64,000 bases of DNA. Source: an uncultured delta proteobacterium. GTDB lineage: Bacteria > Desulfobacterota > Binatia > UBA9968. Numbering within the stretch: position 1 is the stretch's first letter; every line of letters starts with the position of its first letter. The stretch spans positions 96,001 through 160,000 of the forward strand of contig CAWDPO010000015.1 of the NCBI GenBank assembly GCA_963804165.1, in the 5' to 3' direction. Made by a program: the position numbers and the translations under genes. This document shows positions 11,399 to 27,282 of this stretch, in pieces. The notes beneath the pieces were generated by a model. That model had not been told where the DNA came from and did no database searches. It saw only the letters and a list, made by a program, of their open reading frames with translations.

Positions 11399-12570
11399 TT
11401 AATGCCGCAAGCTGCAGAACTCTTCGTAATCGATTAGCTCCTTGATCGTCGGGTGATCGCCGCACATCGGGCAATTGGGATCGCGGCGCAGATTAAGAGT
11501 GTTGATCTCCATCGTCAGCGTGTTGAAGCAGAGCAAGCGGCCGATGAGATGATCGCCTTTACCCAGGATCAGCTTGATTGCTTCCAATGCTTCGATGACA
11601 CCGATCAGCCCCGGCAGGACGCCCAAGCACGCCCGCTTCGGCGCAGCTCGGCGCTAGCTCCGCCGGCGGCGGTTCCGGATAAAGACAACGATAGCAAGGA
11701 CCTTTTCCCGGGTAGAAAACCGACGCCTGGCCTTCAAACTGAAAGATGCTGCCGTGCACATTGGGCTTCCCTGTGAGCACGCAAGCGTCGTTCACTAGAT
11801 AACGCGTCGGGAAGTTGTCGCAGCCGTCGACCACAAAGTCGTAGTCTTTGATGATCTCCATGATGTTTTCTGACGTCAGCTTGGCTTGATAGGGGATCAC
11901 TCTAACGTCTGGATTCAACGCCTCGAGGGTTTTCTTGGCCGACTCGACCTTGGGCATGCCCACACGATCGTTGGCGTGCAGAATTTGCCTCTGTAAGTTG
12001 GAAACATCGACCACGTCATTGTCGATGATTCCTATCGTGCCTACTCCGGCGGCAGCCAAATAATAAGCCGACGGCGAACCGAGACCACCCGCGCCCACCA
12101 TAAGGACTTTCGCTTGCAGCAGTTTGGCCTGGCCCTCTTCGCCGACTTCAGGCAAGGAGAAAATGGCGGCTGTATCGGATCAATTGGTCCGGCGTGTATT
12201 GAAAATCCTGAACCCACTTGAAGCCGCCGTTCTTCCAGGCCGCATAGCCGCCGGCCATCGATGAAACGTTCTGGTAACCCATTTCCTTCATGACCTTGGC
12301 TGCGAGTAGCGAGCGCACGCCACCGGCGCAGTATGCAATGATCGGGGAATTTTTGTCGGGAACGGTGCTTTCTACTTTGATTTCAAGAAAACCTCGAGGC
12401 AGCGGCAGGGCTCCTTCCAGATGCCCCTGCCGCCATTCATCGCTTTCTCTAACATCAAGTAAGACAGGTGATTTCCCGTTATTTTTAAGTAACTCGTTTA
12501 CTTGTTGGGCGCTGACTTCCGGCACTTCCTTGCGTGCCTCGGCCATTATTTCTTGAAAGTTTTTGGCCAT
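11399..12570 (-). pseudogene. moeB: Rhodanese-MoeB fusion (molybdopterin-synthase adenylyltransferase, MoeZ-type) split into three ORFs by two +1 frameshifts (real or sequencing error)
   Basis: Rhodanese LDVRE...YCAGGVRS then RYSRHFLL|PEVGEEGQ junction at ~12152; GAGGLGS, CYRC, CAEAGVLG|VLPGLIG junction at ~11623; C-terminal CPMC. Confidence 0.88.
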
Positions 12571-14921: not shown

Positions 14922-15147
14922 CGGTAATGGCCGTTTAGTTGGCCGCCGAAATGATCCAAAGCAGCATAAGAATGCCAAATCCAGCTATTAGCAACAGGGA
15001 AATATCGAAATTATCTTTCATAAAATATCCCTCTGAGCCTGTGAAAACGCAACGTTTATGCCAGAAGACTTTCGGTGACAAATGAAGATAACCTGCGCTA
15101 CCGCGGGTAAACTTCGGGAAAGAAACTTGTTGAGTGAACCGGCAAAA

Positions 15148-15417
15148 ATGAGCGATCCGGCAAAAAACCCGTTTGATTTACTGCTCGATCAAATCCGCAA
15201 AGTGGTGCGTGAGGAGCTCGCGGCGGGAAACGGAAACGGTCATGGAAAACTGCTTACGGCGGAAGAGCTCGCGAAAGCTCTACAGGTTAATAAAGCGACT
15301 ATTTACGAATGGGTGAAGGCGGGAACGATTCCTTACTATCAATCGGGACGTTTCATTCGATTCAATTTGCATGAGGTATTGGAGAGCCAAAGAAACAAAC
15401 CGGAGAATCCCTCTTGA
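15148..15417 (+). CDS. Excisionase-like helix-turn-helix protein (HTH_17)
   Basis: LLTAEELAKALQVNKATIYEWVKAGTIPYYQSGRFIRF; upstream of the integrase. Confidence 0.88.
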   Translation: MSDPAKNPFDLLLDQIRKVVREELAAGNGNGHGKLLTAEELAKALQVNKATIYEWVKAGTIPYYQSGRFIRFNLHEVLESQRNKPENPS

Positions 15418-15443
15418 CGTGCTATAGACATTTTGCATATAGT
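15414..15443 (+). promoter_or_regulatory. sigma70 promoter with overlapping inverted repeat for the XRE-integrase transcript (probably leaderless)
   Basis: TTGACG-N18-TATAGT ending 8 nt before ATG 15452; no RBS; CTATA-N11-TATAG inverted repeat inside. Confidence 0.6.
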
Positions 15444-15451
15444 CGGTTTGC

Positions 15452-15637
15452 ATGTCAGCACGTGACTTTAAGAAGATGCGCTTAGCAAAAGGTTACAGCC
15501 AATCGCAGTTGGCCCGCGAGCTCGACGTGGCGGTTATGACCGTCTCTCGTTGGGAGCGTGGAGCAGTGCCAATCCCGCGCATGGCCGAGCTTGCGCTATC
15601 CGCATTGAAGCGAAAACCGAAAGGGAAGGGGGATTAA
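15452..15637 (+). CDS. XRE-family helix-turn-helix regulator
   Basis: FKKMRLAKGYSQSQLARELDVAVMTVSRWERG, HTH_3 pattern. Confidence 0.88.
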   Translation: MSARDFKKMRLAKGYSQSQLARELDVAVMTVSRWERGAVPIPRMAELALSALKRKPKGKGD

Positions 15638-16439
15638 ATCATGGCGGCTGTTTACAGGGTGGGTAAGAAGTGGCGGGCGGATTGGATCGATAATGAGGGC
15701 GTTAGGCATCGCCAACGATTCGAGACTAAAGGAGCGGCCGACGAACATCTTGATAGCATCAAGGCGAAGCTTCGGAACGGCACCTATGTTGCGCCGCAAA
15801 AGGTCTGGCTCTTTGGCGCCTTGGCCGATTCGTGGATAGCCAACCGGATTGAGCAGTCACGCACACCCGGCGCCGGCTATCGTCCCTCGAGCCTCGCACA
15901 GTGGCAAAGCCACGTCGCTCACATGAAGGTTTGCTTTGAGAACGAAAGGTAAACGCGCTCGATGCTAAGGCAATCGAACGAGCTATTGCAGTGTTTCAGT
16001 TGCCAAAAGAGCAGGGCGGCCGCGGACTGTCGCCGCGAACCGTCGCCAAAGTGCTCACCACCATGAGCCGGGTTTTTAGGTTCGGGATACGTAACCGTTG
16101 CGGCATTGAAGCGGATCCGACAAAACTAATCGAGCGGGTCAAGGAAAGTTCGGGCGAGCAGAACGAAACCGGCGAGGCTCTTTACAGCGGACTTCATGAA
16201 GTCACGGAAAAAGAGGTTTTGACTCCGCAGGAAACGAAGCAGGTTGTACTTGCAGCGAAGCCCGGGCTTTACCGGACTATCATTCAGACGGCAATCTATA
16301 CCGGCGCTAGAATCAGCGAACTACTTGCCCTCAGGTGGGCGGACGTGGATCTTGACCGCGGAATGGTCGCAATCCGGCGCACAGTGTCGACGGCGCGGGT
16401 AAAAGGGGAGACGGCAGGGGAGAGGCACCGCTGGTTTAA

Positions 16440-16957
16440 TCGCTGCGGGTTAATTCCCCGCAGCTTGCTGCGATATAGTGGCTCGTATGAGCCGATATAT
16501 CCATAAGAGTCATAATGTTTCAGTACTGCTGTATCACATTGTTTGTCCGGCTAAGTACCGCAGAGTGGTTTTTACACCACCGGTGGACCAAAAGGTCAAA
16601 GAGACCTGTCTGGAGATCAGCAAACGGTACGAGATGGCGTTTATTGAGATAGGGACAGACGAAGACCACGTGCACTTTTTGGTGCAGTCGGTGCCAGTGT
16701 ACAGTCCGAAGAAGATCGTGCAGATCATCAAGAGCATCACCGCCCGAGAAATCTTTAGGCTGTGCCCGGAAGTGAAGAAGAAGCTGTGGGGAGGAGAGTT
16801 TTGGAGTGACGGGTATTTCATGAGCACGGTAGGGCAGCATGGCAATGAACAGAGCATTAAAAAGTACATTGAGGGTCAAGGTTCACAGTACACGCAGCTG
16901 CACCGCCAACAACTCAGTCTTTTCTGATACCCCGCAGCTTGCTGCGGGGTAGTTCAT
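16440..16957 (+). mobile_element. IS200/IS605-family insertion sequence (tnpA only, about 518 bp)
   Basis: Follows TTTAA (16435-16439); left-end hairpin GCTGCGGG..CCCGCAGC; right-end hairpin ACCCCGCAGC-TT-GCTGCGGGGT then AGTTCAT; removal rejoins integrase codons TTT AAT CCC AAG (boundary ambiguous by 1 nt). Confidence 0.9.
16487..16927 (+). CDS. tnpA: IS200/IS605 family Y1 HUH transposase
   Basis: YHIVCPAKYRR, DHVHFLV (HUH), LWGGEFWSDGYF, IKKYIEGQ (catalytic Tyr). Confidence 0.96.
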   Translation: MSRYIHKSHNVSVLLYHIVCPAKYRRVVFTPPVDQKVKETCLEISKRYEMAFIEIGTDEDHVHFLVQSVPVYSPKKIVQIIKSITAREIFRLCPEVKKKLWGGEFWSDGYFMSTVGQHGNEQSIKKYIEGQGSQYTQLHRQQLSLF

Positions 16958-18141: not shown

Positions 18142-18882
18142 ATGGCACTGTCGAGCAAAGATTTCGTTTTCGAGATACAGCGCATGGTGCGCGCTAAACA
18201 CTCCAAGGATCACCCCATTATTGGCATGATCGAAGAGGGCAAGCTCGACCGCGCGCAGCTCAAGGGCTTCGTCGGCCAATTCTATCTGTTTTTCCCCAAG
18301 CCGTTTCCGAAGCCAATCGCGGCGATGTTGAGCCGCTGCCCGGACGATCCGGAGATGGAAAAAATGTGGATCGAGAACGTCGTCGAAGAAGGGACGGGCG
18401 AGATCACGGGAACGGATAGCCACAAGGGACTGTTTATTCGGTTTGCCAAAGGCTGCGGATACAGCAAGGAAGAACTGGATCGCGTCGAACCGCTGCCGGA
18501 GACGGAGGCATTTCTCGACTGGCGCGAGCTATTGATGTATCAGCGAAGCTGGTTGGAGCTTTACGCCTGCCAAGGGTTTTGTCTCGAAGGCACCGCCGGC
18601 GAGCGCATGACGCGCATCGTCAACGGTCTAACGAAACATTACGGATTTGACCGGGAGTCGGACGATATTCGTTACTGGACGCTGCACATGGGGGTCGACG
18701 AAGAGCATATGAAGGTCGGTCCCTTCGCGGTGGAACGTTACGCCGTGAGCGAGCCCCAACAAGCGACGGTGCGCGCTTCGGTACAAAAAACCCTCGACCA
18801 GTTTTGGCTTGCTTTTGACGGCATCAAACGCGCCTTTGTCGACAAGGATCCAGTTTATGCCCGCTGGCGCAACGGCAAGTAA
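18142..18882 (+). CDS. Heme-oxygenase-like diiron enzyme (CADD/PqqC/TenA superfamily)
   Basis: N-terminal HP..., ENVVEEG...SH, CLEG and HMGVDEEH (HxxxDxxH) metal-ligand pattern. Confidence 0.85.
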   Translation: MALSSKDFVFEIQRMVRAKHSKDHPIIGMIEEGKLDRAQLKGFVGQFYLFFPKPFPKPIAAMLSRCPDDPEMEKMWIENVVEEGTGEITGTDSHKGLFIRFAKGCGYSKEELDRVEPLPETEAFLDWRELLMYQRSWLELYACQGFCLEGTAGERMTRIVNGLTKHYGFDRESDDIRYWTLHMGVDEEHMKVGPFAVERYAVSEPQQATVRASVQKTLDQFWLAFDGIKRAFVDKDPVYARWRNGK

Positions 18883-18897: not shown

Positions 18898-19554
18898 ATG
18901 GAAATGGTCGATCTATCGCGGCTGATTTACGACGGCATGCCGAAAATTCCCATCTTGCCGGAAGTTCACGTACAAAAGTTTTTGAGTCTGGAAAAAGGCC
19001 ATCCATTAAACGTCACCGAATTGTCGCTGCCGTGTCACGCCGGCACTCACGTCGACGCGCCCATTCACATCGTGCCCAATGGAAAGTCCATCGAACAGCT
19101 GCCGCTCGATGCGTTCGTGGGGCCGGGCGCGGTGATCGGCGTTAAAAAAAACGGCGGTGAAGAAGTGACGGCAAAAGATCTTGAAACGTCCGGCGTGCCG
19201 GTAAACCGCGGTGATATTCTGATGCTCTACACCGGCTGGGACGAGAAATTCGACGGCCCGGAGTACAATCTACATCCATATTTATCCGTCGATGCCGCCG
19301 AATGGATGGTGCGAAAGGGCATCAAGTTGTTCGGCATCGACTGCATCACGGTGGATTTGCCGACACCGCTTCGACCGAAAGGATTCGATTTTCCAGTGCA
19401 CAAAACGTTGCTCGGCAATGAAGTCTTGATCGCCGAGAACGTCGCCAATCTTGGCAGCATCGTCGGCAAGCGCACGCGCATCATGGCGTTGCCGTTGCGC
19501 GTGAAGGGCAGCGATGCCGGCCACGCGCGCATCATTGCGGAGATCTTGAACTGA
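18898..19554 (+). CDS. Cyclase family metal-dependent hydrolase (kynurenine formamidase-like)
   Basis: HAGTHVDAP motif, GIDCITVD, VHKTLLG, ENVANL, PLRVKGSD. Confidence 0.92.
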   Translation: MEMVDLSRLIYDGMPKIPILPEVHVQKFLSLEKGHPLNVTELSLPCHAGTHVDAPIHIVPNGKSIEQLPLDAFVGPGAVIGVKKNGGEEVTAKDLETSGVPVNRGDILMLYTGWDEKFDGPEYNLHPYLSVDAAEWMVRKGIKLFGIDCITVDLPTPLRPKGFDFPVHKTLLGNEVLIAENVANLGSIVGKRTRIMALPLRVKGSDAGHARIIAEILN

Positions 19555-19558
19555 TCCC

Positions 19559-20527
19559 ATGGCGCTCACGAAGCCGATCAAAGGAATCATCGGTGCTTGT
19601 CTGACCCCGTTCGATGAGAACGACCGGGTAAATTACAAAGCCCTCGAGAAAGAAATCGATTTCATCGTTGCCGATTGCGATGCGATTACGATCGCCGCCG
19701 TGGAAGCCGCGGAGTACACCATGCTCTCGCGCGACGAGCGTAAAGAAGTCCTAAAAGTCGCCACGGAGATGGTGAACAGACGAGTGCCTGTGATTCTCGG
19801 CTGCTCGAGCCCGTCGCCCAAAGAGGTGTTAGAATTGGCGGAGTATTCGGCAAAAGTGGGCGGCGATCTGGTTCAGGTGTTGATGCCGCTACGGCCGTGG
19901 GGTGGCCAGCCGACCATCGCCGAGTTGATGGAATTTTATACTCAAGTCGCTTCGGCGAGCCCATTGCCGGTGACTTGTTACCATAACCCCGGGCCCGGCG
20001 CGGACCCACCGCAAGACGCTTTCGTTAAGATCAGCGAGATCGACAACATCCGCTATTTCAAGGAGAGCTCAAGAGACATCACGAAAATCTCGCGGTTGAT
20101 CGAACAGATAGATCTTGCGGGACGCGGTCATTATTTCACCACGATGCAGCCGCTTCTGGTTACGTTGATGCTCGGCGGTTCGGGCGCGACGATGCCGCCG
20201 CCGGGAACACGCATCGGTTCGCAGATTGTAAAAGCATTCAGGGCAGGGGATTTAGACAGGGCGCGCTTCTGGGCGCGTTGCTACGCGCTGTTTCCCGGCA
20301 AGTGGGCAGCCTATGGCCTGCCGCCGGTGATGAAGTCGGCGATGAAGCATTTCGGCGTCGACATCGGCAATCCTTGCCGGCCCTACGCGCCGGTGAGCCC
20401 GCGCGACCACGCGCAGATCGGTCAATTTCTGCGACAAGTGGGTTTGATCGGTGAAGCGGGACCGACGCCTCAAGCCTTGCTCGATGCCCAGGATACACTC
20501 CGGCAGGAAGATACCTTTCTGCGTTAG
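19559..20527 (+). CDS. Divergent DapA/N-acetylneuraminate lyase family aldolase
   Basis: LTPFD, YHNP, Schiff-base Lys in YFKESS; usual GTTGE motif replaced by AVEAAE. Confidence 0.85.
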   Translation: MALTKPIKGIIGACLTPFDENDRVNYKALEKEIDFIVADCDAITIAAVEAAEYTMLSRDERKEVLKVATEMVNRRVPVILGCSSPSPKEVLELAEYSAKVGGDLVQVLMPLRPWGGQPTIAELMEFYTQVASASPLPVTCYHNPGPGADPPQDAFVKISEIDNIRYFKESSRDITKISRLIEQIDLAGRGHYFTTMQPLLVTLMLGGSGATMPPPGTRIGSQIVKAFRAGDLDRARFWARCYALFPGKWAAYGLPPVMKSAMKHFGVDIGNPCRPYAPVSPRDHAQIGQFLRQVGLIGEAGPTPQALLDAQDTLRQEDTFLR

Positions 20528-20592
20528 CGAATCAGAATCGGAGAGTTGCAGAATCACCTGCGCACCCACAGCGCGCGACGGCGTAGTGATTT

Positions 20593-20775
20593 ATGGAATG
20601 GATCAAAGATCTGTCGGATAGATTGGTCATCTGGTTATTGCGAGCGTCTTCGGGATTCGGCAAAGAGCTGACAGCGGATGGCAAACGAGAACAGGAGCTC
20701 TGGCGCGAACAGCGGCTGCGCAATTTGCGCGGTTTGACCTTGCGCGCGCGGCAAGGCTTCGAACGCAAAGATTAG
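20593..20775 (+). CDS. Small hypothetical protein (60 aa)
   Basis: ATG-start ORF filling the gap between aldolase and SQR genes on the same strand. Confidence 0.5.
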   Translation: MEWIKDLSDRLVIWLLRASSGFGKELTADGKREQELWREQRLRNLRGLTLRARQGFERKD

Positions 20776-20797
20776 CCTCACCTCGCGTAAAGTTTTC

Positions 20798-21955
20798 ATG
20801 CAATTCTCAATCGGGCGCAAGAAAATCGTCATTCTCGGCGGCGGCTGCGGCGGCGTCGTCGCGGCGACCCACCTGGGCCGCAAGCTCGGCCGGGACCACG
20901 ATGTGATTCTTATCGACCGGCGCGCCGAGCATCTTTTCATGCCGGCATTTCTTTTTATCATGCTCGGTGAACGCCAGCCGCGCGATATCACCAGGAGCTT
21001 AGCATCGTTGGAGAAGCGCAACGTAAAAGTCATTCAGTCGGAAGTACTCGGCATCGATCCTGTTCGCCAGGAAGTTTCGTTTGAGAAAGAAAAAATCAAT
21101 TACGATTATCTGATCGTTTCTCTGGGTCTGCAAACGAGGCCTGATTTAGTTCCAGGTTTCGCCGAATCATCGCAGCACCCTTGGGAAATGGAATCTGCAG
21201 TGCGATTGCGTGACACGCTCGCGTCCTTTCGCGGCGGCAGAGTCGTCGTTGGGGTTCCGCTCGGGCCGTACCGCTGCCCGCCGGCGCCGTATGAAGCGCA
21301 ATGGATGCTCGACGGGTATTTCCGGCAAAGAGGCATTCGCGAGCGGGTCGAGATCGAATACTTCACGCGCGAAGCCGAACCCACCGGCGAGGCTCACGAT
21401 CCGGTGGTTTGGATGGACGCCGAAAGCAAACGGCGCGGCATCAAGCAAAACTACGAGTTCGTGGTTCGCTCCATCGATCCGGAACGAAGATTGGTCCAAG
21501 GCTTGTACAATTACAAAATACCTTACGACCTGCTGGTCATGGTGCCGCCGCACCGGCCGGCGCAGGTGTTGCTCGACAGCGGCCTAGCCGACACTGAAAC
21601 CGGTATTAGAGTGGATTACGACACGTTGGAAACCAAATGGGAAAACGTCTTCGCCATCGGCGACTGTGCCGACATGCCTGCGTCCAAAGCCGGCGGTGTG
21701 GCGCACCAGGAGGCCGACGTTCTGGCGCATAACTTGGCCGTTCAGATCACCGGCAAAGGTCGGCCGGTGGATCTCTGGCTGCACACGATATGACTGCTGG
21801 CGTTCGGCGCTGGACGCGCCGCCGCGAATCGAACGACTTATCCCACCGGCTGGCCGCCATTCGGCGTCACGGACCCAAAAACCTGGGGTCCGTCAAGAAT
21901 GATCTATTGGGCGAAAATCGGTTTCGAGAAATGGTGGCTCTGGCGTTACTTCTGA
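20798..21955 (+). CDS. Sulfide:quinone oxidoreductase-like flavoprotein, predicted selenoprotein (UGA at 21791-21793 = Sec332; 385 aa)
   Basis: GGGCGG FAD site, YRCPPAPYE (Cys160), AIGD, PASKAG; frame stays open after TGA for 53 codons ending PSRMIYWAKIGFEKWWLWRYF, an SQR-type C-terminal amphipathic helix. Confidence 0.85.
21794..21825 (+). promoter_or_regulatory. Putative bacterial SECIS hairpin
   Basis: GCG-TT-CGGCGC-[TGGAC]-GCGCCG-C-CGC; apical loop starts 17 nt after the UGA with G at position 2. Confidence 0.65.
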
Positions 21956-22090
21956 TCTTGGACTCTCATTGAAAACTAGAATCTCAATGCTCTCGGTTCG
22001 CACGCTAATTCTTGCTGTGCAGCGGAGGGGAGAAGGCGATGTTCGGTCTTTGCCTTAGGACGGGTGGATCGAAAATCACCTTGGATATAA

Positions 22091-22118
22091 AGTTTACATA
22101 ATATCTCTTATCAGACGT
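22091..22118 (-). other. dif site (XerC/XerD chromosome dimer resolution site)
   Basis: Minus strand ACGTCTGATAA-GAGATA-TTATGTAAACT, 11-6-11 layout with conserved TTATGT XerD arm; intergenic, AT-rich, at the switch of gene orientation. Confidence 0.85.
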
Positions 22119-22140
22119 TCTCGATACTAATAAAATTGCT

Positions 22141-22824
22141 CTATTTTGCCGGTGCCGGCACCGAACTCCTCGCTTCCAATTCCGCCACTTTTACAGCCAA
22201 CGGTGAGCCGGGGTTCTCCTTCACATAATCCTTGTAAGCTTGCACCGCTGTCTTCGTGTCACCCAGCTGCTCGGCGCAGCGCGCCTTGCCGAGCACAGCA
22301 CGGGACTGTAACGCGCCGACGATTTTTTCCGCCTCGGCAAAGTGTTCGATGGCCGCTTTACACTGTTTCAACTGTTCTTCGGTCTCCGCTCGCGTGACGA
22401 GCGCTATCTGCCGATACAGGCTGTCGGGTTTGGTGGCGACCACGGAGCGCTCGGCTGCGTTGAGCGCCTTGTCAAGTTGATTCGTCGCCAAATAACTGTT
22501 GGCGAGATAAATATGCGCTAGCACTGAATAGCGGGACCATCGGAAGGTTTGGGTTTTTTCGAAGCCGGCAATCGCGTCGCTATATTTTTGATTCTGGTAC
22601 AATGACAATGCTCGGGTGAATTCGCGTGACGCCGAGACGTTCTGGGATTCCTTAAATGACTGCCAAGCCCACAATGCCAAGGCTAATATAATGATAGCAG
22701 CCGTTGCCGCGAGGACGGCCGTTTTGTGCCCGCCGAGGTACTCCAAAGCGGAGTCGGAGCCGACCTGAAACCAGTCGGGTTGACGCAATTGTTTTCTGCT
22801 GATGCGTCTGCTTGCAGTTGCCAT
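22141..22824 (-). CDS. Membrane-anchored tetratricopeptide repeat protein (YfgM-like)
   Basis: SRKQLRQPD N-terminus, one TM helix, TPR-like helices. Confidence 0.8.
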   Translation of the reverse strand: MATASRRISRKQLRQPDWFQVGSDSALEYLGGHKTAVLAATAAIIILALALWAWQSFKESQNVSASREFTRALSLYQNQKYSDAIAGFEKTQTFRWSRYSVLAHIYLANSYLATNQLDKALNAAERSVVATKPDSLYRQIALVTRAETEEQLKQCKAAIEHFAEAEKIVGALQSRAVLGKARCAEQLGDTKTAVQAYKDYVKENPGSPLAVKVAELEARSSVPAPAK

Positions 22825-22910: not shown

Positions 22911-23438
22911 CTACTGCTTATACTTAAAATCGTCCGGCCCCATTTTTTCTAAAATTTCCGCCCATTTTTCCTTGGAGACGTTGGAGACGTTTTCAACTCC
23001 GCGCTCGTTGGCGTCCTCGTTTTGCTGTAGCATGCTCGAGGCCTCGAGCACGGCCTTAGCGACATAGATCGGGCTTTTCGTGCGTAGTGCCAACGCGATC
23101 GCATCGCTTGGACGCGAATCGATCATCACCTCGCGGCCAGCCAATTTAAGATTGACGGCGGCGTAGTAGGTATTTTCCTTGAGCTCGGTGATCTCCACGC
23201 TTTCGACGGAGCAACCGACTTCCCCAAGAATCGATTTGAGTAGATCGTGGGTCATCGGGCGCGCCATCTTGATCCCTTCGATTTCAGTGGCCATGGCGGT
23301 GGCTTCTAAAAGACCGATCCAGATCGGCAGATTGAGCTTGTTTTCGGTATCCTTAAGGATAACGATGGGCGTCTTGGTGACCGGGTCCAGCGTCAAGCCG
23401 CCGACTGCCATTTGGATGGTATCTTCTCTTTTCATCAT
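22911..23438 (-). CDS. Bifunctional nuclease family protein (DUF151)
   Basis: LPIWIGLLEA, RPMTHDL, DSRPSDAIALA. Confidence 0.93.
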   Translation of the reverse strand: MMKREDTIQMAVGGLTLDPVTKTPIVILKDTENKLNLPIWIGLLEATAMATEIEGIKMARPMTHDLLKSILGEVGCSVESVEITELKENTYYAAVNLKLAGREVMIDSRPSDAIALALRTKSPIYVAKAVLEASSMLQQNEDANERGVENVSNVSKEKWAEILEKMGPDDFKYKQ

Positions 23439-24805
23439 GCCATGTCCCCTTTTAATAACTGGGAGTTCAAATAAGGTGTATCCGAGAAAGCGTCGCCAAT
23501 CAACGAGTTCGCCGTCGCGCCGGTAATTCTCACCGGTAACATTCTACCGACGAAATTCTCCGGTCCGATCACGTTGACGATTCGATTGCCGCGCGTGCGG
23601 CCCATCACTTGCCCGTTCCTCAATTTCGACCGCCCGTCGACCAATATTTCCTCCAGCTTGCCGATCCGTTGGCGATTCTTTACCAGTGATGTTTGCCGTT
23701 GCAGCGCTTGCACGGTCTGTAGACGGTGACTCTTTATTTCACTGGGAATGTCATCGTCGTAAAGTTTTCCTGATACCGTTTGCGGCCGTGGCGAATAACA
23801 GAACGAATAAATTTCATCATACTGCACTTGCTTCAGCAATTCTAGGGTTTGTTGGAATTCCGCGTCGCTTTCGCCGGGAAATCCAACGATGATGTCGGTG
23901 CTGAGCGCGACGTCGGAGCGGCGCTCACGCAGGCGCTCGATGCGGCTTAAATATTCGTCGCGCGTATAACCGCGCCGCATGCGCGCCAGGACGCTGTCGG
24001 CGCCTGACTGGACGGGTAAATGCAGATGCTCGCAAAGATGGTCAAGCGTGGCGAACGCCTCGATCAGTTCCGGCGAGAGATCCTGCGGATGGGAAGTCGT
24101 AAAACGAATCCTGCGCAGGCCGTCGATCGCATCGATACGAGCTAAAAGTTGTGCAAAGCTCAACTCGCCCTGTGTGAGCTTGCCGTACGAGTTAACATTT
24201 TGTCCCAATAGCATCACTTCGATGAAGCCCTTGGCGACTAACGATTCGACTTCAGCGATAATCTTGGCGCTCGGCCGGCTGAGTTCACGGCCGCGCACAT
24301 GGGGCACGATGCAAAAGCTGCAAACCTTGTTGCATCCTTGCATGATGGTCACGAAGGCTTTGACGCCGTGCACTTCCGTTTGCCCGTCGGTGTCCTCCAT
24401 ATACGCCGGATCGCGGTAGAACGCGATTTCCACCGGCCGTGCCTGCGATTCCTGGACTTGCTCGACCATTTGCGGAAGCTTATGAATATTATGCGTGCCA
24501 AACACCAAATCGAGGTGCGGCACCCGTTTCAGCAGATTCGCGCCCTCTTGCTGCGCGACGCAGCCGCCGACGCCGATAATCACGCCGTCGCGATTGTTCT
24601 TGTATTCCTTCCAGCTGCCGAGCGCGCTGTAAACTTTTTGTTCCGCTTTATCCCGTACGCTGCAGGTGTTGAGCAAAATCAGGTCAGCCGCGTCGATCCG
24701 CTCGGTTTGGTCATAGCCGTGGCGCGCCATGACTTGTACGATTCGTTCCGAATCATACTGATTCATCTGACAGCCATAGGTTTGGATAAAGACCGTCTTA
24801 TTCAT
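23435..24805 (-). CDS. miaB: tRNA-2-methylthio-N6-dimethylallyladenosine synthase
   Basis: TYGCQMN, NTCSVRDKAEQK, GCVAQQEG, CNKVCSFC radical SAM motif, C-terminal TRAM domain. Confidence 0.97.
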   Translation of the reverse strand: MNKTVFIQTYGCQMNQYDSERIVQVMARHGYDQTERIDAADLILLNTCSVRDKAEQKVYSALGSWKEYKNNRDGVIIGVGGCVAQQEGANLLKRVPHLDLVFGTHNIHKLPQMVEQVQESQARPVEIAFYRDPAYMEDTDGQTEVHGVKAFVTIMQGCNKVCSFCIVPHVRGRELSRPSAKIIAEVESLVAKGFIEVMLLGQNVNSYGKLTQGELSFAQLLARIDAIDGLRRIRFTTSHPQDLSPELIEAFATLDHLCEHLHLPVQSGADSVLARMRRGYTRDEYLSRIERLRERRSDVALSTDIIVGFPGESDAEFQQTLELLKQVQYDEIYSFCYSPRPQTVSGKLYDDDIPSEIKSHRLQTVQALQRQTSLVKNRQRIGKLEEILVDGRSKLRNGQVMGRTRGNRIVNVIGPENFVGRMLPVRITGATANSLIGDAFSDTPYLNSQLLKGDMA

Positions 24806-26208
24806 GGGGCAATCAAATCGACGATTTTATAAAGCTGAGTAATGCTCCGGCACTCTTCGGCGACGTGACAATGGGGCGCGTAGCGCGGCATTTCACTGTC
24901 GCCGATGCCCCAGGTCATGCGGCTTTCGGGATTCAACCAGATCAGTTGCTTGGCTTTCTGCTGGATCTCGCGCAGCACCCAATCGTTGGGACGATTGTAG
25001 TTATTGCGCCCGTCACCGATGATCAGCACCGTCGTCTTGCTATTTACCGCCGAGAAAAAGTTCTTGTAGAACTGTTCGAAGGCGCGGCCAAAATTAGAGT
25101 GGGAAAAAACGTCGATGACGTCGCCTTTCAGGGCCGCTTCGACCGCCGCCTGAATATCATTTTCTTCGAACAACTTCGTGACCTCGCCGATCTCCGCGAC
25201 GAACACGAAACTGCGCACCTTGGAATAGAGATCCTGCACCGAGTAGACAAACTGCAGCATGAAACGCGACGCGTTGAGCACCGAATCAGAAATGTCGCAT
25301 AGGACCATCACCTGCGGTTTGGTTTTCTTGCGCCGGTCGAGCCGGATATGAAACGGCACGCCGCCGTACTGCAGATTCGAGCGCAGCGTTTTTTTGACGT
25401 CGAAGCGGCCGCGTGCAGCCTTCTTGCGCCGCACCGACAAGCGATTTTTCAGCCGCTGTGCCAGACGGGCGACTGCGTCGTTCATGCGCCGGATATCGTC
25501 TTCGGTGTAGAACGCGAAGCTCTTGTCGGCCAGCGAACTGCGCTGGGAAAAGTCCCTCGGTTCTACGCCTTTTTTGCGCTGCTCCTGCTGGATAACTTCC
25601 CGCAACAGCCGGTTCAAGTCGCGCATGCGCTCGTCGAGGTAGCGCAAAACATTTGGCAAATCCTCGCCGTTTTCGCCGAGCATTTGCAGCATGCCCTTGA
25701 AGCGCTCGATCTCGCTTTGCACCCGGTCGAGCTGCAAGCGCGCCGCCATTCGGGTATAAGGCGTAAAACGAAAACTATCCGGCGTACCTTGCTCCATTTC
25801 CTGCTGGATTGCGTCTCGAAGCAACCGTTCGAGCTCGCCGCGATTGTTGTTCAGTAATGCGCGCGTCAGCTCGGAAAGATCCCCTTCCATTTCCTTGAGC
25901 AAGCGCTGGATCTGTTCGAGCATCTGTTGAAACTGTTCGGGCGATAACCCGAGTTCCTCCATAATGCGCCGGTCGATCGTATCGAGTGCTTGACCGATGC
26001 CCAAGAAAAAATAATCGAACAGCTCTTCGAAGGGCTTGACGTCGCTGACGCGTTTGACCAGCGTGGTGCGCAACGTGTGGCGAAAAAGCAATGGATCTTC
26101 GATGCCGATCAACTCGAGAGCACGAAACGCGTCCATGTTTTCGGACGGTGACACGTGGATGCCGTTGCGTCGCAATACACCGGCAAATTCGATAAGACGC
26201 TCTTCCAT
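24802..26208 (-). CDS. VWA domain protein (CoxE-like)
   Basis: CDISDS MIDAS-like motif, GDGRNN, WLNPE; paired with a MoxR ATPase. Confidence 0.9.
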   Translation of the reverse strand: MEERLIEFAGVLRRNGIHVSPSENMDAFRALELIGIEDPLLFRHTLRTTLVKRVSDVKPFEELFDYFFLGIGQALDTIDRRIMEELGLSPEQFQQMLEQIQRLLKEMEGDLSELTRALLNNNRGELERLLRDAIQQEMEQGTPDSFRFTPYTRMAARLQLDRVQSEIERFKGMLQMLGENGEDLPNVLRYLDERMRDLNRLLREVIQQEQRKKGVEPRDFSQRSSLADKSFAFYTEDDIRRMNDAVARLAQRLKNRLSVRRKKAARGRFDVKKTLRSNLQYGGVPFHIRLDRRKKTKPQVMVLCDISDSVLNASRFMLQFVYSVQDLYSKVRSFVFVAEIGEVTKLFEENDIQAAVEAALKGDVIDVFSHSNFGRAFEQFYKNFFSAVNSKTTVLIIGDGRNNYNRPNDWVLREIQQKAKQLIWLNPESRMTWGIGDSEMPRYAPHCHVAEECRSITQLYKIVDLIAP

Positions 26209-26222
26209 GCGAAACCAGCCGG

Positions 26223-27182
26223 TTAGTGCAGATGATCTTTGTCGCTGCCGGCGACTCCGGGACGTTGCGCCTGCTTTTCGGCGAGGTAAGCTTTCAACTC
26301 CTGATGCGCCTTGCGGATGTCGGCCTCGTATTTCATCAACGTGGAAAGAGTCTCTTCTACCAGGTCATGGTCGAGCTCTTTGATATTGAGCAAAGTCAAC
26401 GCACGCACCCAGTCGAGGGTTTCGCTGATGCTCGGAGTTTTCTTCAAATCCAATTTTCGCAGACGGTGCAGCAGCCGTACAACTTCATCGGCGAGCTGAT
26501 TGCCGACATCGGGTACTTTGAGCTTGATAATTTCCATTTCGCGCTGAGAATCGGGGAAATCTATATAAAGGTGCAGACAGCGCCTCTTGAGAGCGTCCGA
26601 CATTTCACGGCTGTTGTTACTGGTTAATATGACCAGTGGAACCTGCTTTGCCTTGAGGGTGCCGATCTCCGGGACTGAAATTTGAAAATCGCTCAAGATC
26701 TCCAGGAGAAACGCTTCAAACTCCGCGTCGGATTTATCAACCTCATCAATCAGCAACACGCAGCGTTTTTCCGAGAGCAAGGCCCGTAGCAACGGGCGCG
26801 GCAACAAAAATCGATCGGAAAAAAACACGCCGTCCTGATTGGCGACGCAATCGACCGCTTCCTGCAGCGTCTGCGAACCTTGCAAAATGTCGCCGATCTT
26901 TTCCTTGAGAATCTGCGTGTAGAGAAGCTGCTTGGCGTATTCCCACTCGTAAAGCGCCTTGGCTTCGTCGAGGCCTTCGTAGCACTGCAAGCGTATGAGC
27001 TCCATGCCGAGCGTCTCGGCTAGCACTTTACCCAGCTCCGTCTTGCCCACTCCAGCCGGCCCTTCGACCAGTATCGGTTTTTGCAAAGTCGTGCCGAGGT
27101 AAACGACGGTCGCAACATTCTTGTTGCAGATATATTTTTGCGTGCCGAAACCCGCGATGACATCATTGACGGATTGAAACAT
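26223..27182 (-). CDS. MoxR-family AAA+ ATPase (CoxD-like)
   Basis: EGPAGVGKT, RLQCYEGLD, LLIDEVDK, SDALKRRCL; ATG at 27182. Confidence 0.93.
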   Translation of the reverse strand: MFQSVNDVIAGFGTQKYICNKNVATVVYLGTTLQKPILVEGPAGVGKTELGKVLAETLGMELIRLQCYEGLDEAKALYEWEYAKQLLYTQILKEKIGDILQGSQTLQEAVDCVANQDGVFFSDRFLLPRPLLRALLSEKRCVLLIDEVDKSDAEFEAFLLEILSDFQISVPEIGTLKAKQVPLVILTSNNSREMSDALKRRCLHLYIDFPDSQREMEIIKLKVPDVGNQLADEVVRLLHRLRKLDLKKTPSISETLDWVRALTLLNIKELDHDLVEETLSTLMKYEADIRKAHQELKAYLAEKQAQRPGVAGSDKDHLH

Positions 27183-27282
27183 GGCGTCCCTTTCCAATTT
27201 TTTCAAGCTAACACAAAGCCTCATTGACGACAATCAAGCGGCACGTTTGCAGATACGCGACCATTCTGCAAAGCTTGGTCGC

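Follow-up and report, generated by a model that had tools for sequence, protein, structure and literature searches.

A putative selenocysteine-containing sulfide:quinone oxidoreductase encoded across an in-frame UGA in an uncultured lineage of Binatia

The window analyzed here is a 64,000-nt stretch of contig CAWDPO010000015.1, which belongs to the genome of an uncultured delta proteobacterium of the class Binatia. It carries on its forward strand a gene for a flavoprotein with the fold of sulfide:quinone oxidoreductase (SQR) and flavocytochrome c sulfide dehydrogenase (FCSD), in which one in-frame TGA is present. Inspection of the sequence shows that an open reading frame (ORF) of 331 codons starts with ATG 20798 and is closed by TGA 21791-21793, the surrounding peptide reading LWLHTI-*-LLAFGAGRAA. 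The frame past this TGA is open for 53 further codons to a second TGA at 21953-21955, and this continuation begins LLAFGAGRAAANR and ends PSRMIYWAKIGFEKWWLWRYF. The ORF, the TGA, the 53-codon continuation, a hairpin behind the TGA and the residue Cys160 all lie where a sequence-only reading of the window had placed them, and that reading had proposed decoding of the UGA as selenocysteine (Sec). Compared with its relatives, the locus very likely encodes a bacterial selenoprotein, namely a 385-aa membrane-associated SQR-type enzyme that depends on flavin adenine dinucleotide (FAD) and in which the second redox cysteine is replaced by Sec332. The features of the gene are as follows, each with the evidence from which it was assigned.

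20798..21955, + strand: predicted selenoprotein coding sequence, SQR/FCSD-fold flavoprotein, 385 codons with Sec as codon 332, followed by a terminal TGA (reading frame, Pfam, AlphaFold2 (AF2), Foldseek)
20837..20854, + strand: FAD-binding motif GGGCGG, residues 14-19, in the N-terminal Rossmann fold (sequence and homologue alignment)
21275..21277, + strand: codon TGC of Cys160 in YRCPPAPYE, putative first redox-active cysteine (alignment with human SQOR, homologue column)
21791..21793, + strand: UGA read as putative Sec332 in LHTI-U-LLAFGAGR, HxxU motif (TGA counts in orthologues, Cys column)
21794..21952, + strand: read-through segment of 53 codons, predicted to form three beta-strands and a C-terminal amphipathic helix (diversity by codon position, AF2)
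21805..21821, + strand: hairpin of 17 nt resembling a selenocysteine insertion sequence (SECIS) (RNAalifold, folding energy, four-fold sites, published criteria for bacterial SECIS elements)
21896-21949, + strand: predicted C-terminal helix, residues 367-384 (AF2)

In the single window sequence, the TGA, the open frame and the hairpin together are not beyond chance, and by our own estimate an open run of 53 codons is unremarkable in GC-rich DNA, so the case is decided only by comparison. A search of 61 related genomes, which represent three families of one order, gave 53 matches that reach across residue 332, distributed over 52 of the genomes, and each match has one TGA. At the orthologous loci that were fetched, whose proteins are 68-92% identical, the TGA stands exactly at codon 332 in 40/40 (39/39 without locus L042, which comes from the unpublished genome G005). 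The same codon is TGA in all 79 loci of named species-representative genomes that cover it, an eightieth locus stopping short of the codon, and in 80/80 loci from metagenome contigs. The 40-locus and named-genome sets overlap in origin, their 112 full-length copies without gaps comprising 83 distinct DNA sequences. Since the TGA is kept across assemblies, sequencing error is excluded. Among the sequencing runs listed for the genome none is of RNA, and the largest share in a DNA run is 0.12.

Translation also appears to continue beyond the TGA. Pairwise nucleotide diversity averages 0.12, 0.085 and 0.44 at codon positions 1, 2 and 3 after the TGA, compared with 0.21, 0.12 and 0.52 before it. 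The read-through frame is free of stops in 39/39 orthologues, whereas the other two frames carry stops in 24 and 19 of the 39. One of these two is the frame of a 60-aa ORF at 21790-21972, the ATG of which overlaps the TGA, and this ORF was therefore rejected as a candidate gene. It could still be supposed that the TGA is a nonsense mutation which truncates a former Cys-SQR and leaves the downstream frame as a decaying remnant. The database records agree with such a pseudogene in that 119/120 of the best homologues, labelled 'sulfide:quinone oxidoreductase' or 'FAD-dependent oxidoreductase', are called as proteins of 327-331 aa, and the hairpin of the single sequence is no better than shuffles (see below). 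The short records are equally what the sequence-only reading had foreseen, namely that gene callers truncate the protein. Decay is contradicted by a TGA fixed at this codon in 40/40, 79/79 and 80/80 loci over 65-94% protein identity, by constraint on the 53 downstream codons that is at least as strong as on the upstream part, and by what truncation would remove from a confidently modelled fold, namely three strands and the terminal helix. The comparative data thus refute a pseudogene, the chance of which we consider negligible.

The genome possesses the machinery for Sec insertion that the sequence-only reading had asked for. The genes selA (610 bits), selB (357 bits) and selD (385 bits) all score above curated cutoffs, and a tRNA-Sec (76 bits) with the anticodon TCA (UCA in the tRNA) is present. 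The gene selD carries its own in-frame TGA in the active-site motif AAG-U-AAK, so SelD itself would be a selenoprotein here. Among the 61 relatives, selA is above cutoff in 56, and the five genomes that miss it are 60-93% complete. As an observation on gene order, selD, selB and selA are clustered in the same orientation on contig 16 (G000:C16:139949-144339).

Read-through of the UGA without selenium was considered as well, whether the code were reassigned (UGA as Trp or Gly) or a near-cognate tRNA suppressed the stop (inserting Trp or Cys). UGA followed by C is a leaky context for termination, and such a C follows the UGA in 38/40 orthologues. However, the terminal stop of the same gene varies among 39 orthologues (TAG in 15, TGA in 12, TAA in 12), which shows TGA at work as an ordinary stop here, and its use to end this very gene in 12/39 argues against a reassigned codon. 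The full Sec system including a Sec-containing SelD, a column occupied by Cys in homologues, which makes a classic Sec/Cys pair, and a conserved hairpin at the distance of bacterial SECIS elements likewise speak against selenium-free read-through, which we hold to be very improbable. With the TGA kept in every orthologous locus that covers the codon, a coding signature downstream and the Sec machinery in place, UGA 21791 is, in our view, almost certainly decoded as Sec, as the sequence-only reading proposed.

The SECIS-like hairpin is formed by CGGCGC (21805-21810), the loop TGGAC (21811-21815) and GCGCCG (21816-21821), which gives a 6-bp stem and a 5-nt loop. Its stem opens 11 nt past the UGA, and its loop, with G at position 2, opens after 17 nt. 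In the minimal SECIS of Escherichia coli fdhF, too, a stem-loop of 17 nt comes after a spacer of 11 nt. When 39 distinct sequences among the 40 orthologues were given to RNAalifold, one consensus helix was obtained, pairing positions 15-20 with 26-31 (U of UGA = 1) around a loop N-G-G-N-C, so that relatives retain both the TGA and the hairpin. According to section 5 of the review PMC13188914, bacterial SECIS elements have a loop of 3-9 nt, a stem of 4-16 bp, 16-37 nt from UGA to loop, a minimum free energy <= -7.5 kcal/mol, and a G within the first two loop positions that is usually followed by G or U. The window hairpin lies within all the limits set out in that section, with a loop of 5 nt, a stem of 6 bp, an N-G-G loop, a spacing of 17 nt and -11.1 kcal/mol, the last being the folding energy of 23 nt.

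The stem overlaps the codons GGC-GCN-GGN-CGC-GCC, and its pairing is kept in 99.1% of cells, with four of the six pairs never varying (19 of 40 sequences). Because amino-acid conservation confounds stem conservation, four-fold degenerate sites were compared, defined as those with the first two bases invariant in the 83 distinct sequences (35 sites). Two sites within the stem could be scored, at the third positions of codons 337 and 341. Of all 35 they have the lowest diversity (0.048 and 0.093, the median being 0.533), and they vary only from C to T, by which a G-U pair is retained. At codon 339 in the loop (0.547) and codon 342 immediately beyond the stem (0.639), the four-fold sites are free.

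Several observations weigh against the hairpin as a SECIS element, and against Sec insertion in general. Compensatory covariation was not found in the stem, 0/6 pairs being changed on both sides in those 19 sequences, so the RNA-level support consists of the conservation at synonymous sites. The conserved stem bases are also those that a GC-rich genome favours through its preference for codons ending in C, and the sequences compared are related. Against dinucleotide shuffles, single-sequence folding gave z = +0.46 (60 nt) and -1.25 (23 nt), which is not more stable than chance, and the stability of the hairpin is therefore no evidence on its own. A scan of 20500-22200 with Rfam returned no SECIS or other relevant family. 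The SECIS region of selD from the same genome was folded for comparison and gives no help, as it had no evident likeness to the SQR hairpin. Moreover, the source genome is a metagenome-assembled genome in 46 contigs, 80.9% complete with 5% contamination.

The read-through product matches the Pfam families Pyr_redox_2 (PF07992) and FCSD_central (PF21706), and its AF2 model, built with 64 aligned homologues, reached a predicted local distance difference test score (pLDDT) of 94.1 and a predicted template modeling score (pTM) of 0.92. Within the block of residues 329-385, at pLDDT 70-97, the model has strands at 329-337 (which holds U332), 340-347 and 359-366 and a helix at 367-384; the part behind the TGA would thus be integral to the fold. 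This helix is rich in Trp, Phe and Lys and probably holds the enzyme at the membrane. At the N-terminus, the GxGxxG of the Rossmann fold is present, with G14 and G19 invariant and G16 near-invariant among the 64 homologues. The first Foldseek matches were SQRs (Aquifex, human, A. ferrooxidans) and FCSD, at TM-scores of 0.79-0.85, and the closest solved relatives by sequence were human SQOR (1e-34), followed by Acidianus SQR, FCSD, Aquifex SQR and A. ferrooxidans SQR.

When aligned with human SQOR, the window protein has C160 opposite the Cys of 'pvkC' (chain index 161) and U332 opposite that of 'ytsC' (chain index 339). Adding 40 to each index presumably leads to Cys201 and Cys379, which we take to be the catalytic pair. 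Among 135 homologue representatives (50%-identity clusters, length >=300 aa), the Cys160 column is Cys in 123, and the U332 column is Cys in 110; five sequences end one residue before the latter column, and the other 20 have another residue, a gap or an earlier end. Residue 332 accordingly falls in the column of the conserved second redox Cys and Cys160 in that of the first, which was the placement anticipated from the sequence. C160 and U332 would then constitute a redox pair of the SQR/FCSD type with Sec instead of Cys at the second position, and Sec could change the chemistry with sulfide, persulfide or selenide.

The solved SQRs of human (SQOR; 6oi5, 8dhk), Aquifex aeolicus (3hyv), Acidithiobacillus ferrooxidans (3sz0, 3t31) and Acidianus ambivalens (3h8i) share the fold with the window protein (TM-score 0.72-0.84), match it at E-values of 1e-34 to 1e-13, and have both redox positions and the C-terminal helix in common with it. 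However, all of them are of the Cys type at the second redox position, where the window protein would have Sec, and the identity is merely 22-25%. As for FCSD, its flavoprotein is soluble and partnered by a cytochrome c subunit. The FCSD flavoprotein (1fcd, 3vrd, 5n1t) shares the fold (TM-score 0.83-0.85) and the Pfam domain FCSD_central with the window protein. Unlike FCSD, the window protein has a Trp/Phe-rich terminal helix, and no cytochrome gene is adjacent. Mammalian thioredoxin reductase is another flavoprotein of the pyridine-nucleotide-disulfide oxidoreductase superfamily with a Cys/Sec selenenylsulfide redox centre, and its Sec is located in a C-terminal GCUG tail with the SECIS in the 3'-untranslated region. 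In the window protein, by contrast, Sec would replace an internal active-site Cys, and the putative SECIS lies inside the coding sequence.

Within the clade, one rare full-length Cys form, P0024, was found among protein records, which is 74% identical and reads HTIC-LLAFEPGKAA; the genome collections examined contained no Cys orthologue. The peptide of P0024 departs from the Sec forms exactly over the hairpin codons (FEPGKAA vs FGAGRAA). The DNA of P0024 was sought in metagenome contigs and not found (best match 76% identical, all 80 loci with TGA), so the apparent absence of the hairpin from the Cys form is inferred from the peptide alone.

Sec-SQRs are already known, as computational predictions only. 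The 2025 deep-Sep paper (PMC12013277) predicts a Sec-SQR in Desulfosediminicola and speaks of homologues with TGA in further organisms, and a table of the 2026 review (PMC13188914) includes a Sec-SQR family with the motif HxxU, crediting the deep-Sep paper. NCBIfam holds the model NF049943, "type III SQR, selenoprotein subtype" (SQR_III_seleno), also with the motif HxxU. In the literature searched, outside which most subscription journals fall, only computational reports and no characterized Sec-SQR were found, nor any paper on Binatia or Binatota with selenocysteine or selenoproteins. The sequence-only reading had stated that it knew of no characterized Sec-SQR, which agrees with this search, but the novelty that it suggested was overstated, because the family is already in NCBIfam and in print as a prediction.

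Members of NF049943, like the window protein, are SQR-like NAD(P)/FAD-dependent oxidoreductases, and both are known from sequence alone. Sec is placed in the same alignment column, with His at position -3 in both (HATU there, HTIU here). The gene call of P0169 (525.3 bits with NF049943), which is 35% identical to the window protein, ends ...GHAT, one residue short of the Sec column, and at the NF049943 loci L153, L155 and L156 of the same phylum TGA stands directly after GHAT. The putative SECIS elements are different in sequence and geometry and appear unrelated, since that of NF049943 has an 8-bp A/U-containing stem from 17 nt past the UGA and, by RNAfold, a 4-nt apical loop GGUC about 25 nt past it, whereas the window hairpin has a 6-bp GC stem and the loop NGGNC. 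Cys paralogues of NF049943 members are without the NF049943 hairpin. In three genomes (G332, G360 and G433), two SQR genes of NF049943 level occur together in one genome, one with TGA and one without, as Sec and Cys paralogues.

NF049943 is above cutoff in 22/401 sampled genomes of the phylum, and 9/25 matches carry TGA. In the window's class it is above cutoff in 0/16 genomes, being found in other families of the phylum. The window protein itself has NF049943 as its best-scoring NCBIfam model at 262 bits against a cutoff of 525, and the search of the genome with that model gave 255.9 bits for the window SQR. The sole link of the window protein to the 'type III' of SQR appears to be this model, which NCBI names type III and which happens to score best. 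In a FastTree phylogeny of 140 rows, the window clade and NF049943 are separated by Cys forms, each in its own strongly supported half, and at least five changes are needed for the label 'Sec or ends at the column'. We regard the window clade as a second, independently evolved lineage of putative Sec-SQRs, which the curated model missed. P0024 (Cys) is nested among Sec forms and the Sec-truncated P0124 branches deeper, which suggests that P0024 is a secondary Sec-to-Cys reversal. When 300 genomes of the phylum were sampled, matches at <=1e-60 came from only four others, all of them about 40% identical and without the stop. Records of the window clade are mostly titled 'Candidatus Binatia bacterium', others delta proteobacterium, Thermodesulfobacteriota or Syntrophobacter-type, and four (65-66% identity) Acidobacteriota. 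As well, the gene calls of P0165, P0183 and P0246, from different positions in the tree, end one residue before the Sec/Cys column and may be truncated Sec forms.

Two genes upstream of the SQR gene were kept in nearly all loci compared, one of them belonging to the dihydrodipicolinate synthase (DHDPS) family.

20593..20775, + strand: conserved micro-protein gene, 60 aa, 22 nt before the SQR start (tblastn, alignment, fusions)
19559..20527, + strand: DHDPS-family (class I aldolase-like) gene, upstream neighbour (PF00701, synteny)

The micro-protein has a tblastn match in 118/120 loci, and its alignment (42 sequences) contains 7 invariant and 12 near-invariant residues, from which we conclude that it is a real protein; neither Pfam nor NCBIfam has a family that matched it. 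Several lineages extend it by an N-terminal hydrophobic, transmembrane-like stretch, and at five loci (L105, L124, L138, L139 and L142) no stop separates it from the SQR, so that the two form one fused reading frame. In view of these natural fusions, the micro-protein is read as a probable accessory or anchor subunit of the SQR. The DHDPS-family gene matches PF00701, is below every NCBIfam cutoff, and lies upstream of the SQR in 40/40 loci. It is also the last gene of a conserved run on the + strand, found in L110 too, in which 18142-18882, 18898-19554 and 19559-20527 encode haem-oxygenase-like/CADD-PqqC-like, cyclase/arylformamidase-like and DHDPS-family proteins, respectively.

The neighbourhood in the window does not favour sulfide as the substrate. 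Upstream lie the haem-oxygenase-like/TENA, cyclase and DHDPS-like genes, with no sulfur genes among them, and downstream lie TPR, bifunctional nuclease, MiaB-like radical SAM, VWA and AAA genes, which are not sulfur genes either. A sulfur operon around the window SQR was accordingly rejected, as the flanking genes are unrelated to sulfide oxidation, and the assignment to sulfide leans on the fold, the catalytic residues and the neighbourhood in sister families. In those families, a fusion gene of metallo-beta-lactamase and rhodanese domains (Lactamase_B + Rhodanese) is located directly downstream of the Sec-SQR, which we read as a persulfide dioxygenase-rhodanese, the usual partner of SQR. It was found downstream in 34/120 orthologous loci, co-directional in 30 and convergent in four (e.g., L110 4260-5297, + strand), and the orthologue of the window genome, 59% identical, is on contig 35 (G000:C35:50910-51947). 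A search of the genome with the window SQR as query revealed no further SQR-like gene. Supported by the fold, the catalytic pair and the persulfide dioxygenase-rhodanese neighbour, the substrate is probably sulfide.

The protein might also be a real selenoprotein that is no SQR but a flavoprotein of the SQR fold with a different chalcogen or thiol as its substrate (selenide, reduction of polysulfide or persulfide, a low-molecular-weight thiol), and perhaps tied to the DHDPS-like neighbour. The absence of sulfide-oxidation genes near the window SQR, the universal retention of the DHDPS-like gene (40/40) and the micro-protein (118/120), and the failure to reach the NF049943 cutoff are all compatible with this. 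Handling of selenide in particular is suggested by two titles, that of the structure 3sz0, which names a complex of A. ferrooxidans SQR with sodium selenide, and that of a bioRxiv preprint on SQOR reducing ubiquinone with selenide. Against another substrate stand the retention of both redox positions and of the SQR fold, the persulfide dioxygenase-rhodanese directly downstream in sister families (34/120 loci) and its orthologue in the window genome, and we consider another substrate unlikely, though less so than a pseudogene or selenium-free read-through.

For the Sec-containing SQR-type enzyme favoured here, the following mechanism is proposed. The GC hairpin (17 nt, 11 nt past the UGA) would recruit SelB-GTP-Sec-tRNASec, presumably by binding of SelB, and UGA 21791 would thereby be read as Sec rather than as a stop. 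By homology with solved SQRs, Sec332, located in a beta-strand, and Cys160 may form a redox centre beside the FAD, in which Se and S would be joined either directly as a selenenylsulfide or through bridging sulfur. Sulfide is predicted to attack the Cys160/Sec332 centre, with electrons passing via FAD to membrane quinone and the sulfane sulfur being handed on. The pathway downstream for the sulfane sulfur would be the persulfide dioxygenase-rhodanese, which is adjacent in sister families and on another contig here. Attachment to the membrane may be provided by helix 367-384 and aided by the micro-protein.

If so, an order-level lineage of uncultured soil bacteria has its only detected SQR mis-called, short of one catalytic residue and the membrane helix; the mis-call would be lineage-wide, since 119/120 of the closest entries are truncated and NF049943 does not reach the clade. 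The locus would thus supply an annotation fix for the whole lineage together with a previously unnoticed micro-protein partner, and it would tie the handling of sulfide by abundant uncultured soil bacteria to the supply of selenium. Moreover, the clade offers a natural Sec/Cys pair, the Sec forms and P0024, for testing what selenium gives to SQR.

Sec at the same SQR position was verified at the DNA level in two cases, the window clade and NF049943, with unrelated SECIS elements. A wider reading joins these observations, and we put it forward tentatively, as rather less likely than not to hold in full. It supposes that Sec was recruited several independent times into the same SQR position and that in this order the Sec form, as the only SQR found in the genome and with the micro-protein as its membrane anchor, has nearly displaced the Cys form. 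Sulfide oxidation would then be selenium-dependent, and the Cys/Sec centre would give an advantage in kinetics or oxygen tolerance. If this were true, sulfide oxidation in widespread uncultured soil bacteria would need selenium, and the advantage could be measured against the natural Cys revertant P0024.

Other genes of the window were noted in addition. On the - strand at 22911-27233 are genes for a bifunctional nuclease domain, a MiaB-like radical SAM protein (UPF0004 + Radical_SAM + TRAM), a VWA CoxE-like protein and an AAA ATPase. Also on the - strand, at 11559-12570, a rhodanese ORF (12148-12570) overlaps a ThiF-family ORF (11559-12155) by 8 nt. This rhodanese ORF was rejected as a sulfide-oxidation gene, because it stands beside the ThiF-family ORF and looks like part of a MoeB/ThiF-type system that activates a sulfur carrier. 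Finally, an HTH_17 excisionase-like ORF and a short ORF of the phage-integrase family, of which only 60 residues match, are present at 15082-16506 (+ strand), and they may be a remnant of a mobile element.

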